Both the position numbers and the translations under genes were made by a program. 36,442 nt of DNA from a virus. Taxonomy: Duplodnaviria; Caudoviricetes. The stretch lies in the IMG/VR virus record IMGVR_UViG_3300027769_000071, positions 1 to 36,442 of that record; one strand, written 5' to 3'. Positions 298 through 5,461 of the stretch are shown in pieces; position 1 is the stretch's first letter; the number at the start of each line of letters is the position of its first letter. A model generated the notes under the pieces. The model did not search any database. It was not told where the DNA came from and saw only the letters and a list, made by a program, of their open reading frames with translations.

Positions 298-1662
298 ATG
301 ACCTACCAAGACTTCCTAGATCAGAAGACGCACGAGGGAGCGGCGCACGGCTTTGAGCCTGTGTTCATGCCGCCGCAGTTGTTTGATTTCCAGCAGTCAC
401 TCGTTGAGTGGGCGGTCCGCAAGGGCCGCGCAGCCATCTTTGCTGACTGCGGACTTGGCAAGACCGCCATGCAGCTCACATGGGCTGAAAACGTGGCGCA
501 GTACACGGGCAAGCCGGTTCTGATCCTGACGCCACTGGCAGTTGCTGCGCAGACCATCCGCGAGGGTGAGAAGTTCGGCATTGAGTGTCACCGCTCCAGC
601 GATGGCAGCGTGCCGGGACGGATCGTCATCACCAATTACGAGCGGCTGGAGCACTTCAGGTCTGCTGACTTTGCTGGTGTCGTGTGCGATGAGTCGAGCA
701 TCCTCAAGTCATTTGATGGCGCTCGCCGCAACGAGATCACCGACTTCATGCGCAAGGTGCCCTATCGGTTGTTGGCAACAGCAACAGCTGCGCCGAATGA
801 CTTTATTGAGCTTGGCACCAGCAGCGAAGCTCTCGGCTACATGGGCCATATGGACATGCTCGCTCGCTTCTTCAAGAATGATCAGAACAACTTGACCAGT
901 CGCCGCATGTATGGCGAGGCGCCAAAGTGGCGCTTCAAGGGTCACGCCGAGATGCCGTTCTGGCGATGGGTGACAAGTTGGGCCAGGGCTTGCCGCAAGC
1001 CGTCAGATCTTGGTTTTGATGATGGCCGGTTCATCCTGCCTGCATTGCATGAGAATGATCACCTGATCGAAACTCAAACCATTGCCGATGGAATGTTGTT
1101 TGCAATGCCAGCGACTGACCTACGCGAACAACGTGCCGAGAAAAAGCGGACGGTCGCTGAGCGATGCGAGCAGGTTGCCAGCATGGTTGCAAACACTGGG
1201 CAGAGTGCTTTGGTGTGGTGTCACCTCAACGAGGAAGGCGACATGCTTGAGAGGTTGATTCCTGATTCGATTCAGGTGTCAGGCAAGGACAAAGACGACA
1301 TCAAAGAGCGTCGATTGATTGATTTCGCCGAAGGACAATCCAGAGTGCTGATCACCAAACCCAAAATCGGCGCGTGGGGCTTGAACTTTCAAATCTGCAA
1401 TCATGTGACCTACTTTCCGTCCCATAGCTTCGAGCAGTACTACCAATCCGTCAGGCGCTGTTGGCGGTTCGGCCAAGATCGTCCAGTGACTGTTGACATT
1501 GTGCTCACGGAAGGCGAGCGGCGGATCATGGAGAATCTGCATCGCAAACGGTTACAGGCTGAGCAAATGTTCAGCAATCTGGTTTCCGAAATGAATCATT
1601 CGCTGGAAATCCAGCGCAAAGAATACAACACCGCACCTATCGAGGTTCCATCATGGCTGTGA
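298..1662 (+). CDS. SNF2-related SF2 helicase/ATPase
   Basis: Q motif LFDFQ, Walker A ADCGLGKT, Walker B DESS, motif III TATAAPN, motif V GLNFQ, motif VI QSVRRCWRFGQ. Confidence 0.85.
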   Translation: MTYQDFLDQKTHEGAAHGFEPVFMPPQLFDFQQSLVEWAVRKGRAAIFADCGLGKTAMQLTWAENVAQYTGKPVLILTPLAVAAQTIREGEKFGIECHRSSDGSVPGRIVITNYERLEHFRSADFAGVVCDESSILKSFDGARRNEITDFMRKVPYRLLATATAAPNDFIELGTSSEALGYMGHMDMLARFFKNDQNNLTSRRMYGEAPKWRFKGHAEMPFWRWVTSWARACRKPSDLGFDDGRFILPALHENDHLIETQTIADGMLFAMPATDLREQRAEKKRTVAERCEQVASMVANTGQSALVWCHLNEEGDMLERLIPDSIQVSGKDKDDIKERRLIDFAEGQSRVLITKPKIGAWGLNFQICNHVTYFPSHSFEQYYQSVRRCWRFGQDRPVTVDIVLTEGERRIMENLHRKRLQAEQMFSNLVSEMNHSLEIQRKEYNTAPIEVPSWL

Positions 1663-2621
1663 TCACCGACCGTTACGCGATCTACAACGGCGACTGCATT
1701 GAGGTGATGCAAGGACTGCCCTCCGAGTCCATTCATTTCTCGATTTACTCGCCGCCTTTTGCCGGGTTGTATGTGTACAGCTCAAACGAGCGTGACATCA
1801 GCAACTGCCGAGACTACGACCAGTTCATGGATCACTACAGCTATGTGGTTTGCGACCTGCATCGGTTGACCCTGCCAGGTCGGCTGACTGCCGTGCATTG
1901 CACTGACATCCCAAGCGGCAACAGCGGGCAAGACTCGCTGATGGACTTGCCTGGCAAGATCATTGCATTGCATGAACAATGCGGCTGGCATTACGTGGCA
2001 CGACACACGATTTGGAAAGAGCCACTATGGGTGCGCAATCGAACCATGGTTAAGAATTTGGCACACAAGACCATCGTCGATGATGCAGCCTACGCAGGTG
2101 TTGCATCTGCTGACTATTTGCTGATGTTCCGCCGTAGTGGAACCAATAAGATCCCGATCGCAAATCCGACAGGACTTGATCATTACGCCGGTGAATGTCT
2201 GATTCCGGCGGAGCTGCAACAGTACCGCAACTGGAAAGGCAAGCAGACCGAGAATAGATTCAGCCATTGGATTTGGCGTCGCTATGCGTCTTCAATCTGG
2301 GATGACATCAATATGGGCCGCGTGCTGCCATTTCGTGATTCAAAGGATCAAGATGACGAGAAGCACGTGCATCCGCTTCAGCTGGACGTGATTGATCGGG
2401 CAATTTGCCTGCGTTCCAATCCTGGCGAGACGGTGTTGACCCCATTTATGGGCGTCGGCAGCGAGGTTTATGGCGCGGTGCAAGCCGGCAGGCGCGGCAT
2501 CGGCATTGAGTTGAAGGAGTCCTACTACAAGCAGGCGATCAAGAACATGGAGATCGCCGTGGAGGACACGCGTATCCCCGATCAAGCCTCGTTGCTGGAT
2601 GACGCCGGAGACCTGCTGTGA
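1653..2621 (+). CDS. DNA amino-methyltransferase (N6_N4_Mtase, beta-class motif order)
   Basis: NGDC N-terminus, catalytic SPPF, HVHPLQ, SAM-binding VLTPFMGVGS, GIGIELK. Confidence 0.85.
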   Translation: MAVITDRYAIYNGDCIEVMQGLPSESIHFSIYSPPFAGLYVYSSNERDISNCRDYDQFMDHYSYVVCDLHRLTLPGRLTAVHCTDIPSGNSGQDSLMDLPGKIIALHEQCGWHYVARHTIWKEPLWVRNRTMVKNLAHKTIVDDAAYAGVASADYLLMFRRSGTNKIPIANPTGLDHYAGECLIPAELQQYRNWKGKQTENRFSHWIWRRYASSIWDDINMGRVLPFRDSKDQDDEKHVHPLQLDVIDRAICLRSNPGETVLTPFMGVGSEVYGAVQAGRRGIGIELKESYYKQAIKNMEIAVEDTRIPDQASLLDDAGDLL

Positions 2622-2722
2622 ACCTTCGCCCCTACCAGCAACATCTGACCACCGACATCCGCCTGCAGTACCAGCTCGGCAAGCGTGCGGTGCTGGCGGT
2701 GCTGCCGACCGGTGGTGGCAAA
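2618..2722 (+). pseudogene. stranded original 5' end (35 codons) of the SF2 helicase, ending at the Walker A lysine
   Basis: MNLRPYQQ...VLAVLPTGGGK matches the N-terminus at 3270-3377 at 23 of 33 aligned residues. It is GTGA-coupled to the upstream methyltransferase and reads in frame into the HNH gene. Confidence 0.75.
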
Positions 2723-2755
2723 TGGTATGATTTGCTTACCACCGCTTGTCGGGCT

Positions 2756-3277
2756 ATGCCTACCGTTTGCAAAATTGAAGGCTGCGACAAACCTTGCGAC
2801 TGCCACGGCATGTGCGGAATGCACGCTCAACGCATGCGTCGCTATGGCGACCCGTACTATGTCACACCAGAACAGGAGAGGCGCGCAAACAACCGCGCCG
2901 CTCAGATTGCTCGGCTTGATTCAGTCAAGCCCAGCACATACCGCAAGCGGCATGGTCGCCATGAGCATCGAGTTGTTGCTGAGCAAATGCTCGGTAGGGC
3001 ACTAATGCCAGGCGAAATTGTGCATCACATTGACGGTGATAAACACAACAACAATCCATCAAACCTGCAAGTTATGACACAAGACCATCACTTGCGTGAG
3101 CACCTTGCTCCTGACGCTGCGCCGATTGAATGGCAGGGACGGTCTATGTACCCAAAAGAATGGGCGCAAGAGTTTGGCATTAGCGTTCAGCGGTTTTATG
3201 GGCGCAGACGCGCAGGTTGGTCTATGGATCGGATTGCCGCAACTCCTACACGCAAATGGAATAAAGCCAATGCTTAG
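2756..3277 (+). CDS. HNH homing endonuclease with N-terminal Cys/His module and C-terminal DNA-binding helix domain (may also be made from GTG 2618 as a fusion)
   Basis: CKIEGC...GMCGMH..RMRRYGDP; HEHRVVAEQMLGR...VHHIDGDKHNNNPSNL; C-terminal EWAQEFGIS...R...GWS. A TG-TATGAT extended -10 lies at 2723-2731. Confidence 0.85.
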   Translation: MPTVCKIEGCDKPCDCHGMCGMHAQRMRRYGDPYYVTPEQERRANNRAAQIARLDSVKPSTYRKRHGRHEHRVVAEQMLGRALMPGEIVHHIDGDKHNNNPSNLQVMTQDHHLREHLAPDAAPIEWQGRSMYPKEWAQEFGISVQRFYGRRRAGWSMDRIAATPTRKWNKANA

Positions 3278-4625
3278 CCTGCGCCCTTACCAACAGGACA
3301 TGGTGGATCAGATCCGCCTCTCTTACCAGTTAGGCCATAAGTCTGTTTTGGCTGTCTTAAGCACCGGTGGCGGAAAAACCCGGATATTCACCCACATCGC
3401 CCAATCCGCTGCCCGCAAAGGCAACCGCACGTGCATCCTGGTCCACCGGCAAGAGCTGCTGGATCAGGCCAGCTGCAGCCTCACTGGCATGGGCGTCACC
3501 CATGGCTGCATCCGTGGAGGCCGCGGCATGGACCTGAGCCATGCGGTGCAGGTGGCCAGCGTGCAGACCCTGGCCCGCAGGCTGCACAAGCTGCCTCGGG
3601 ACTTCTTTCAGTTGCTGGTCGTCGATGAGGCGCACCACAGCAATGCAGGCACGTGGGTGCAGGTGATCGAGCACTTCCGATCCGCGCACCTGCTGGGGGT
3701 TACTGCGACCCCATGTCGTGGAGATAGCCGTGGACTTGGCGAGTGGTATCAGGCGATGGTTGAAGGACCAAGCGCCGCATGGCTCACCGACAACGGCTAC
3801 CTCGCGCCTGCGAGGGTGCTAGCGCCGCCTGGGTTCGATGCCAGCGGCATACGGAAGCGGATGGGTGATTTTGACACCCGTGAGGCCGAGCAACGCGTAG
3901 GCACGATCATGGGCGACTGCCTGAGCCACTACCGCAAACACCTAAGCGGTCAGACGGCAATCGCCTTCTGCTGCTCAGTGGCCCACGCCGAGGCCGTGGC
4001 TCAGCTGTTCATGGGCGCCGGCATCCCAGCCGCCAGCATTGACGGCAGCATGGATGGCGCCACACGCCGCGACCTGCTGCAGGCGCTGGGTACTGGTCGG
4101 ATACGCGTGCTCACCTCCTGCGCCCTGATTGGTGAAGGCGTTGACGTTCCCTCGGTCGGGGGCTGCATCCTGCTGCGACCAACCCAGAGCGTGAGCCTGC
4201 ACCTGCAGATGATCGGTAGATGCCTCAGGCCATCACCCGGCAAGGCGGCAGTCATCCTCGACCACGTGGGCAACACGCTACGCCTCGGCCACCACCTAGA
4301 GCCACGGGAGTGGACGCTGGAGGGGATCGCAAAGCGCGACCGCGACAAGGCGCCATCGGTGAAGGTGTGCCCGCAGTGCTTCGCCGCCATGGCCAGCCAG
4401 GTGCGGCAGTGCTTGGAATGTGGCCATCAGTTTGCGCCGGAGGTGCGGGAGCTGCAGCAGGTGGAGGGTGAGTTGGTGGAGCTTGCTGCCCGTGAGCGCA
4501 AGCGCGAGCAAGGCACCGCTCAATCCCTCGACGACCTCCGCCAGCTAGCGCAGCAACGGGGATACAAGCGAGGATGGGCCGAGAGGGTCTATCAGGCCAG
4601 ACTGGCCAAGAGGCATGGGCTGTGA
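3270..4625 (+). CDS. DEAH-box SF2 helicase (RadD/YejH/ResIII-like) with C-terminal zinc ribbon
   Basis: LRPYQ, STGGGKT, VDEAHH, TATP, EGVDVP, QMIGRCLR, CPQC..CLECG. The ATG at 3270 overlaps the end of the HNH gene. Confidence 0.9.
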   Translation: MLSLRPYQQDMVDQIRLSYQLGHKSVLAVLSTGGGKTRIFTHIAQSAARKGNRTCILVHRQELLDQASCSLTGMGVTHGCIRGGRGMDLSHAVQVASVQTLARRLHKLPRDFFQLLVVDEAHHSNAGTWVQVIEHFRSAHLLGVTATPCRGDSRGLGEWYQAMVEGPSAAWLTDNGYLAPARVLAPPGFDASGIRKRMGDFDTREAEQRVGTIMGDCLSHYRKHLSGQTAIAFCCSVAHAEAVAQLFMGAGIPAASIDGSMDGATRRDLLQALGTGRIRVLTSCALIGEGVDVPSVGGCILLRPTQSVSLHLQMIGRCLRPSPGKAAVILDHVGNTLRLGHHLEPREWTLEGIAKRDRDKAPSVKVCPQCFAAMASQVRQCLECGHQFAPEVRELQQVEGELVELAARERKREQGTAQSLDDLRQLAQQRGYKRGWAERVYQARLAKRHGL

Positions 4626-5461
4626 CGCTCCGTCTCCTTGACACCTTCAGCGGCATCGGCGGGTTCTCCTACGCAGCCGAGCGCTTGGTTGGCGGCTACC
4701 AGACCGTTGCCTTCGTTGAGCGTGAACCCTTCTGTCAGTCCATCCTCCGCAAGCACTGGTCCGATGTCCCCATCTACGACGACATCACTACCTTCAACCC
4801 AGAGCCGGGTTCAGCTGACGTTGTTTGCGGAGGGTTCCCTTGCCAAGACATCAGCACGGCAGGGAAGCAGGCCGGCATCAAAGAAGGCACCCGCTCTGGC
4901 CTGTTCTACGAACTCATGCGAGTCGTTCGCGTGGTGGGACCGCGCTACGTCGTCCTGGAGAACGTCGCAGCGATCACTTCTAACGGAATGGATGTTGTAC
5001 TCGGGACGCTGGCCGAGGCAGGGTTTGATGCTGAGTGGGCATGTATTCGGGCTGCAGATGTGGGTGCCTGTCATCGGCGTGATCGGTGGTGGTGCGTTGC
5101 CTACCCCCAGGGCCAACAGTGCAATGACCGTGGATCTGCGCACTCAGCAGGATCGGCCAGAGCTTCAGCCCAACTTGGAAACGGTGATGGCGCGGATGTT
5201 GCCCACTCCAGTGGCTCGGGATTGCAAAGGCAGGAGCCAGCGTGGAGACCTGCTGCCGGATCGCTTTGTCCCGACTGGGGGGGGTATTTATCTCAACCCG
5301 TCCTTCGTCGAGGAGATGATGGGCTTTCCGGTCGGGTGGACCGTTTGAAGGCGCTCGGCAATGCGGTGGTTCCTCAGGTGGCCGCCATACCATTGGCGCG
5401 TGTGCTTGATCTAGAGCGTGTCAGAGCAGCAAATCCAGCAGCACATCCGCCTTGCCCTTAG
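4622..5461 (+). CDS. C5 DNA cytosine methyltransferase, alpha chain (motifs I-VIII and X)
   Basis: FSGIGG (I), GFPCQD (IV), ENV (VI), HRRDR (VIII), LKALGNAVVP (X). GTG start is coupled to the helicase stop. Confidence 0.9.
   Translation: MTLRLLDTFSGIGGFSYAAERLVGGYQTVAFVEREPFCQSILRKHWSDVPIYDDITTFNPEPGSADVVCGGFPCQDISTAGKQAGIKEGTRSGLFYELMRVVRVVGPRYVVLENVAAITSNGMDVVLGTLAEAGFDAEWACIRAADVGACHRRDRWWCVAYPQGQQCNDRGSAHSAGSARASAQLGNGDGADVAHSSGSGLQRQEPAWRPAAGSLCPDWGGYLSQPVLRRGDDGLSGRVDRLKALGNAVVPQVAAIPLARVLDLERVRAANPAAHPPCP
4764..5348 (+). CDS. nested +1-frame gene: putative beta chain of the C5 methyltransferase (motif IX-like)
   Basis: The frame is open from 4638 to 5348, has two LPTP..A repeats and ends LNPSFVEEMMGFPVGWT. 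The start codon is uncertain. Confidence 0.65.
   Translation: MSPSTTTSLPSTQSRVQLTLFAEGSLAKTSARQGSRPASKKAPALACSTNSCESFAWWDRATSSWRTSQRSLLTEWMLYSGRWPRQGLMLSGHVFGLQMWVPVIGVIGGGALPTPRANSAMTVDLRTQQDRPELQPNLETVMARMLPTPVARDCKGRSQRGDLLPDRFVPTGGGIYLNPSFVEEMMGFPVGWTV

Follow-up and report, generated by a model that had tools for sequence, protein, structure and literature searches.

Replacement of one end of a gene by a mobile element, without splicing, has so far been shown in yeasts and fungal mitochondria, and reviews view the homing genes of phages as intron-borne, intein-borne, intergenic or gene-splitting. The WHO elements of Torulaspora and Lachancea yeasts, presented as a third category that is rare and known from yeasts (bioRxiv 10.64898/2026.08.13.744650), replace the nuclear gene FBA1 along its 3' half, and allele-specific cleavage has been shown for them (PMC7282813; bioRxiv 10.64898/2026.08.13.744650). 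In fungal mitochondria, mobile open reading frames (ORFs) in atp6 of Allomyces macrogynus and in atp6, atp9, cox2 and nad3 of Glomus bring foreign C-termini to their host genes (PMC3630166; PMC7487136), and GIY genes duplicated with the atp9 N-terminus are also mentioned (PMC7487136). Here we describe a phage locus of a related kind from the IMG/VR virus record IMGVR_UViG_3300027769_000071 (Duplodnaviria; Caudoviricetes), of which the whole stretch of 36,442 nucleotides was analysed (the window). In the window, an HNH endonuclease gene stands between two copies of the start of a superfamily 2 (SF2) helicase gene.

The locus is probably a mobile HNH cassette situated at the Walker A codons of the helicase, which left the native gene start behind as a stub, brought a start of its own and likely spreads by homing; the start it brought (copy 2) is predicted to escape the nicking predicted for its enzyme. 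The core of this reading, a homing element with 5' replacement, is held with high confidence. The features of the locus are given below, empty alleles being helicase loci that have no HNH gene.

2618..2722, plus strand: copy 1, the native helicase 5' end of the recipient, 35 codons from the Q motif to the Walker A lysine, left as a stub (closer to the empty alleles)
2723..3391, plus strand: cassette of about 670 bp, mobile according to the border comparisons, with a promoter-like leader, the HNH gene and the replacement helicase 5' end
2726..2731, plus strand: TATGAT, predicted -10 promoter box at the cassette start (30 nucleotides before the HNH ATG)
2756..3277, plus strand: HNH endonuclease, 173 aa from its likely own ATG (Pfam HNH_3 E=1.8e-12; PHROG HNH families)
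3270..3391, plus strand: copy 2, the element-borne replacement helicase 5' end (ATG 3270 overlaps the HNH stop by 8 nucleotides)
3270..4625, plus strand: complete hybrid SF2 helicase, 451 aa, with element-derived start and native body (Pfam ResIII E=4.7e-30, Helicase_C E=6.7e-15; PHROG 16 E=2e-98)

Like a WHO element, as far as the available texts describe these, the cassette joins an endonuclease gene to a second form of the host gene's start or end, involves no splicing, keeps the displaced native end as a fragment and has its target, predicted in the case of the cassette, in an active-site motif. The WHO element's own allele is reported to be resistant, whereas resistance of the cassette is only predicted. 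WHO elements have a LAGLIDADG and zinc-finger enzyme, affect the FBA1 3' half and form tandem clusters, whereas the cassette has an HNH enzyme, swaps the 40 initial codons of a phage helicase, was not seen in a tandem cluster and must supply a start codon and likely a promoter. In the fungal mitochondrial ORFs the native copy matches relatives at 91-98% and the inserted copy at 64-81% (PMC3630166; PMC7487136), and there, as here, the hybrid gene is intact and the inserted copy looks horizontally acquired. They differ in using LAGLIDADG or GIY-YIG enzymes, in residing in organelle genomes and in replacing mostly the C-terminus. In the phage locus the alternative helicase end restores a full frame (3270-4625) and copy 2 travels with the HNH gene, while the displaced native end beside the element matches the empty alleles. 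The cassette works like the WHO and fungal elements and belongs to neither family.

Among the phage systems, the T4 MobA element is likewise an HNH cassette that inserts into a conserved enzyme gene and involves neither an intron nor an intein; around the nick site it carries HomR, a diverged homologous stretch (67-81% identity), it has inserted repeatedly in recent times, and its endonuclease was later lost (bioRxiv 10.1101/2022.08.31.505936). MobA splits its topoisomerase into two polypeptides with CTE/NTE tails, and its immunity needs the 50-nucleotide ribosomal bypass of gene 60; in contrast, the cassette replaces a whole N-terminus, yields one full-length protein without bypass and is not a MobA-type element. 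The T4 mob genes, mobE in Aeh1 nrdA and I-HmuI (PDB 1u3e) are free-standing and share with the cassette the HNH_3 core and the place adjoining an essential replication gene, but such T4-type enzymes sit between genes or split a gene into two needed halves, and a duplicated gene start is not mentioned for them in the available text ('duplicat', 0 matches; PMC2988022). Fractured genes, including that of the gp41 helicase, also show, within a phage helicase gene, an endonuclease gene that has control elements of its own, but there the host protein is rebuilt by trans-splicing of a split intein, which the cassette does not contain (PMC2677866). A replaced gene start is not described in the available parts of PMC10448857, PMC2988022, PMC2677866 and PMC12724721, and no phage report of a homing gene replacing a gene start was found in the full-text literature, mostly open papers without supplements. 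A 670-bp phage element swapping a gene 5' end would bring the logic of WHO elements to viruses, with a different enzyme and at the opposite gene end.

An earlier note, made from the sequence of the window alone, had claimed that the helicase N-terminus is present twice, with GC-rich codons in copy 1 and AT-rich codons in copy 2, and both the duplication and the codon strings quoted for it proved correct. Copy 1 starts with GTG and is translated as VNLRPYQ...VLAVLPTGGGK, and copy 2, in register with it from 3273 (3273-3377), as LSLRPYQ...VLAVLSTGGGK. The copies share 23 of 35 residues (23/33 counted from residue 3) and 63 of 105 bases, the latter being the best ungapped match of copy 1 elsewhere in the window on both strands (next best 53, mean 27.5, sd 4.8). 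The diagnostic changes of copy 2 are Pro to Ser (AGC, 3360-3362) and Val-Cys to Arg-Ile (3381-3386). The GC content at third codon positions (GC3) is 0.80 in copy 1, 0.51 in the HNH frame, 0.60 in copy 2 and 0.77 in the helicase body. Copy 1 had been said to stop at the Walker A lysine; the similarity does end there, but copy 1 has no stop codon and its frame continues into the HNH gene as a single ORF of 219 aa (2618-3277). Copy 2 and the body form one uninterrupted helicase frame including the motifs LRPYQ, STGGGKT, DEAH, TAT and QMIGR.

The helicase comparison set consisted of the best 80 of 328 confirmed helicase loci in viral contigs: 74 were empty (63 distinct sequences), three had an HNH gene and three had too little upstream sequence. 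The HNH-bearing loci were L001 and L002, which are identical to the window and were not counted as independent, and L049. Searches with the HNH gene yielded 38 carrier loci, 17 of them distinct, the near-duplicate pairs L085/L159 and L090/L163 included. Other HNH genes flanked by duplicated helicase starts, which the earlier note had expected, are thus at hand in these carriers and, as seen below, in the wider family. The HNH-less relatives were likewise expected to be nearer to copy 1, and this was the case in 71/74 loci and 60/63 distinct sequences (mean nucleotide identity 80% vs 60%). The comparative predictions of an element that supplies a replacement helicase start all turned out as expected.

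Two of the three exceptions, L027 and L046, have an ordinary start for the first 15 nucleotides, then match the copy 2 of L049 in 102/105 and 95/105 nucleotides, and have GC-rich bodies. They are likely products of loss or conversion.

L027:3001-3120: HNH-less helicase with a copy-2-type start
L046:2998-3120: HNH-less helicase with a copy-2-type start

The third exception, L032, is also HNH-less and matches the copy 2 of the window in 92/105 nucleotides; its GC3 of 0.56 across the whole helicase is the lowest among the empty alleles (mean 0.74), and it is a candidate for the donor lineage of this copy 2. From the pattern of these three loci, copy 2 is best read as a foreign, diverged, AT-richer allele and not as the recoded sequence that had been proposed: codons 3273-3392 differ from the majority codon of 60 empty alleles in 30 of 40 cases, 15 synonymous and 15 non-synonymous. 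In 17/17 carriers the GC3 of copy 2 is below that of copy 1 (means 0.49 vs 0.73; empty alleles 0.79). The FastTree phylogeny, inferred from 96 sequences of only 99 nucleotides and without a topology test, placed the copy 2 sequences in two clades, one of 12 carriers and three HNH-less alleles (support 0.97) and the other of five carriers (support 0.98), and scattered the copy 1 sequences of the 17 carriers among the empty alleles. Two further loci, L012 and L043, look like partial mosaics. The sequence EIRGQYQLG, by which the L085-type copy 2 is recognised, is present in copy 1 of L090, L154, L157 and L163, and these stubs may be old replacement starts that were later re-invaded. Of the cultured phages, Synechococcus phage S-LBS1 has a canonical empty P-loop in its helicase. 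In Synechococcus phage S-H1 (L575:1198-1330, MK105819.1), which has no HNH gene, the P-loop codons match the second copy 2 clade; its GenBank annotation places the helicase start about 480 nucleotides too late.

The left border of the cassette lies behind GGC-AA and the right border between about 3391 and 3404, that is, about 14-27 bases past the lysine. The replaced part had earlier been taken to end at 3377; the comparisons of L003, of X10 and of L085 with L088/L089 extend it to this interval. Compared with the empty allele L003, the window has its final mismatch at +13 (3391), followed by 46 identical bases. In 17/17 distinct carriers the junction follows GGN-A(A/C), and the lysine of copy 2 is 653-655 nucleotides further on; at least eight different upstream ORFs were distinguished by eye among them. 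A DNA pattern for the left junction had ten matches, nine known carriers and one chance match (L149).

The comparison of L085 with L088/L089 gives the clearest contrast between cassette and flanks. The insert is 98% and copy 2 98-99% identical, whereas copy 1 is 78%, the upstream sequence 53-57% and the next 285 nucleotides 67-68% identical; identity is high from offset 102 and collapses at offset 781, which is 23 nucleotides past the lysine codon. L088 and L089 themselves share 53% of the upstream sequence and 100% of the insert. From this difference between cassette and flank identity, it is well supported by sequence comparison that the cassette moves as a unit and has recently been mobile between divergent phages. 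Sequences from two other studies also bear on the borders. X10 follows the window over 2692-3404 with six differences in 713 nucleotides and then continues into another helicase body. X13 contains the cassette of the window with 15 differences in 735 nucleotides, so that in both cases a cassette 98-99% identical to that of the window stands on a different helicase background, and also an empty allele that leaves the window sequence at 2722, so that the occupied and empty forms were present in one run. More widely, occupied and empty alleles coexist as 17 distinct carriers and 74 empty loci. A repeat search of 2550-3450 found short two-copy matches only and neither a target-site duplication nor terminal inverted repeats. 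When the fused ORF was compared by tblastn with 50,697 phage records, 61 matched, none of them closely over the full query, and a cultured carrier was not found.

The HNH product has a Cys/His-rich N-terminus, an HNH_3 core and a predicted C-terminal helical domain resembling a helix-turn-helix (HTH). The metal-binding and general-base residues of its catalytic core are intact, judged from the Pfam HNH_3 match above the cut-off and from the alignment with I-HmuI, the top PDB sequence match (weak, E=0.01). Residues H90, H91, D93, N98, N103 and H112 are invariant across 41 HNH homologues, and H90/H91/H112 align with D74/H75/N96 of I-HmuI (residue numbers from PMC12724721). Homing enzymes of this HNH type nick a single DNA strand (PMC2988022). 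The structure model of the protein had a pLDDT of 85.5 and a pTM of 0.43.

The non-coding part of the cassette is limited to the 33 bases ahead of the HNH ATG, and the HNH stop overlaps copy 2, which is likely translationally coupled to the HNH gene. A TAnnnT hexamer was present 27-35 nucleotides ahead of the HNH start codon in 33/39 distinct upstream sequences, which are related and hence do not represent 39 independent trials, as against 24/1360 control windows; the hexamer offsets fall in differing reading frames. A scan of 2400-3500 for two-box sigma-70 promoters and terminators found nothing, since a -35 match is absent. In L153 an in-frame stop stands right behind the -10 box, after the junction, and in L090, L161-L163 and L240 the stub is out of frame. 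The HNH protein is therefore likely made from ATG 2756 and its own promoter. On codon differences, the HNH frame is under purifying selection and the leader is not: the frame has 62 synonymous and 21 non-synonymous differences from L049 (22-67 and 16-23 in four other comparisons), and the leader of 11 codons has none synonymous and seven non-synonymous in 5/5 comparisons.

The proposed mechanism would begin with co-infection, in which the HNH protein would be expressed from its own -10 box and ATG 2756. Its nick in the empty allele would fall within a site that extends over ...ACN GGN GGN GGN AAR / ACN GTG TGC, and repair would copy the donor. The borders suggest that the donor stub would provide the homology on the left, which is the probable role of copy 1, and that the homology on the right would come from the part of the helicase body further in than about +14 to +27. 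With stub and body as homology, the element would be independent of the upstream gene, which is variable among these phages. The product is a stub, the HNH gene, a foreign start and the native body, with one intact helicase frame and no splicing, as present in the window. A carrier would then be immune, as its stub ends before the right-hand half of the site, while in copy 2 both halves are changed. Later loss of the HNH gene would leave a helicase with a foreign start, of the form seen in L027 and L046.

The target site probably straddles the junction, with only its left half kept in the stub. At positions +3/+4, in the Val codon that follows GKT, 97-98% of the 60 empty alleles agree and 17/17 copy 2 sequences are altered, and -18/-17 (Pro to Ser) and +6/+7 are altered in 12/17. 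The most diverged blocks are 0 to +14 and -45 to -31 (0.55 match). Positions +3/+4 and -18/-17 are candidate resistance determinants. The allele that the earlier note proposed as the reconstructed empty form, 2618-2722 joined to 3378 onward, is likely resistant, because it keeps element-derived bases to the right of the junction, including the two positions altered in 17/17 carriers. That the divergence of copy 2 is what confers immunity is favoured, with moderate confidence.

Several points weigh against the homing of a self-protecting cassette as described. The cut site was placed from where copy 2 diverges, and Ser at the Pro position is already found in 4/60 empty alleles. In T4 MobA, a diverged homologous stretch alone did not block nicking while the bypass insert did (bioRxiv 10.1101/2022.08.31.505936, citing earlier work), so that immunity does not necessarily follow from divergence. 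Foldseek comparison of the HNH model with the PDB gave no match at E≤0.001, I-HmuI being third with E=0.12. The 17 carriers are related and include the two near-duplicate pairs, so the number of independent events is below 17. In addition, many more distant members of the HNH family have no detectable stub among the matches listed. Since stubs are variable or absent in the family, the P-loop junction would be a trait of this subfamily and not of the family as a whole.

The wider family is closely tied to helicases. In 47/48 distinct HNH loci with a bit score of at least 100, the gene stands directly before an SF2 Q motif and Walker A, and the gene behind the 48th is by eye also a helicase. Stubs of about 14-35 codons were present, among the matches listed, in L096, L171, L180, L184, L185, L186, L196, L249 and L314, and full, shortened and absent stubs all occurred among the 120 protein homologues listed. 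This variation, together with the internal deletion of many stubs and the many family members that stand before a helicase without one, would also suit a homing gene of the ordinary free-standing ('intronless') type whose cut falls at another place within the helicase or close to it, the stub then being a trace of one founding recombination with no role in later homing or immunity; free-standing T4 enzymes are known to cut far from their insertion site (PMC2988022). However, copy 1 differs among carriers and tracks the local empty alleles and not one founder, and both borders lie within about 27 nucleotides of the lysine codon, which leaves no co-converted tract deeper in the helicase for a distant resistant site. 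We therefore consider this explanation unlikely.

Still less probable is that there is no targeted cutting and that the HNH gene is an accessory phage gene, shuffled as a module by homologous recombination between conserved helicase motifs. The phage encodes both RecT and a PD-(D/E)XK exonuclease, the gene upstream of the helicase is itself highly variable, and carriers are a minority, only three of the best 80 helicase loci and two of these identical to the window. Such mosaicism leaves unexplained, however, why the copy 2 positions beside the junction are altered in 17/17 carriers, why the family stands nearly exclusively before helicase starts in distant phages, and why the loss alleles keep the foreign start.

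A functional nuclease consisting of the whole 219-aa fusion, with the duplication kept for the helicase Q-motif and P-loop piece that it provides, is very improbable. The frame is open over 2618-3277 and full-length fusion ORFs of stub and HNH occur in about a dozen protein clusters, but the in-frame stop of L153, the five out-of-frame stubs and the absence of synonymous differences from the 11-codon leader contradict it, and in several stubs the Lys has become Asn or Thr while others are internally deleted. An assembly chimera of two related phages, a danger recognised in the earlier note, has a negligible probability: the origin is metagenomic and the X8 assembly graph branches just past 3409, but this run, which comes from another study, has a single contig (depth 703) that agrees with the window at every base of 2200-3409, and 17 distinct carriers, whose HNH identity goes down to 71%, show the layout again.

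Four other candidates were rejected. Inteins favour P-loop sites; for an intein or split intein, Pfam gave no domains besides HNH_3 and ResIII in 2618-3274, and in 3270-4622 none besides those of the helicase. For a group I or II intron there was no Rfam match at gathering score in the window and ten loci, and non-coding sequence is limited to the 33 bases before the ATG, in line with the absence of splicing that had been claimed. A split helicase does not fit the uninterrupted frame of copy 2 and body, and pure synonymous recoding of copy 2 does not fit its 15 non-synonymous codons of 40.

In more distant HNH loci the helicase motif downstream is often broken: 55 distinct motifs were intact and 55 were not. 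Examined by eye, 42 of the latter were SF2 Walker A motifs with a short insert, and in 38 of these a stop codon came immediately behind the preceding codon; the other 13 were mis-picked motifs. The insert has 1-7 bases, mostly a stop codon and then the preceding codon again, exactly or nearly so (GGT TGA GGT AAG; ACC TG ACC GGG). The loci are as follows.

Broken Walker A: L102, L106, L115, L117, L187, L188, L198, L202, L203, L212, L219, L223, L252, L262, L266, L268, L273
Broken Walker A, continued: L275, L276, L285-L287, L289, L292-L295, L298, L300, L307, L308, L311, L317; L352-L451

A search for the in-frame broken form that was independent of the HNH gene detected 100 loci, 63 of them distinct, in SF2/SNF2 helicases, and each of the 63 stays open over the next 100 codons. 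An HNH gene was upstream in 8/63 distinct broken loci and 0/76 intact controls (Fisher p=0.0014), the HNH profile having been built partly from those same HNH sequences. Pfam identified HNH_3 in 7/61 and VRR-NUC in 22/61 of the upstream frames picked for the broken loci; these picks are imprecise, blank rows mean little, and the scan covered the broken loci only. The link between the HNH gene and the broken Walker A is real but loose, as 55/63 have no HNH gene. The inserts are candidates for short ribosomal hops.

It is possible, though tentative, that a single HNH family specialises in the 5' ends of SF2 helicase genes in phages, and that it protects itself either by 5'-end replacement or, in Firmicutes-like phages, by Walker A inserts of 1-7 bases that ribosomes would have to hop. 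Cycles of invasion, loss and re-invasion would then amount to a WHO-like arms race rewriting the P-loop, and to a widespread third homing class beside introns and inteins. The natural panels of empty, occupied and loss alleles, with the cultured empty-allele phage S-LBS1, make target specificity and the co-evolution of nuclease and target testable with a protein of 173 aa. The element also gives a warning: these phages have chimeric helicase N-termini, and a helicase-HNH fusion called by annotation pipelines is spurious.

The window is a stretch of tailed-phage genome with tail, capsid, RecT, Thy1 and sigma-70 genes (Pfam). The nearest cultured helicases are those of the Synechococcus phages S-H1 (78.5%) and S-LBS1 (67.9%), and the host is presumably a picocyanobacterium. 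Nine sequencing runs contained at least half of the locus, all of them freshwater metagenomes and six of them flagged as possible origins of this DNA, and in RNA runs the share of the locus covered was just 0.04-0.10. The cassette locus is preceded by the following gene.

1653..2621, plus strand: DNA methylase gene, upstream context outside the cassette (Pfam N6_N4_Mtase E=1.4e-14)

Its stop overlaps the native helicase start as GTGA, and in L006 a 99% identical methylase directly adjoins an uninterrupted helicase. Positions 298-2621 hold a second, SNF2-like helicase gene and then the methylase; in relatives, L027 and L018 for example, the two are fused into one ORF (about 750 aa). Downstream, at 4622-5461 and 4638-5348, there is a cytosine methylase that Pfam matched over no more than positions 2-168 of the profile; its C-terminal motifs are apparently in the overlapping second frame, which suggests a two-chain methylase.

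Further features were noticed at some loci of related HNH genes. L096 (2830-2995) and L100 (2830-2965) have a common, structured-looking leader before the HNH gene; it may resemble C4 antisense RNAs, but it had no Rfam match at gathering score. In L304 (2390-2990), a related HNH gene lies between two copies of the first 35 or so codons of a gene that is terminase-like by eye. In L324 (1770-2330), another lies between two copies of an internal cytosine-methylase motif (PAAxVGAPHRRDRVWIVA).

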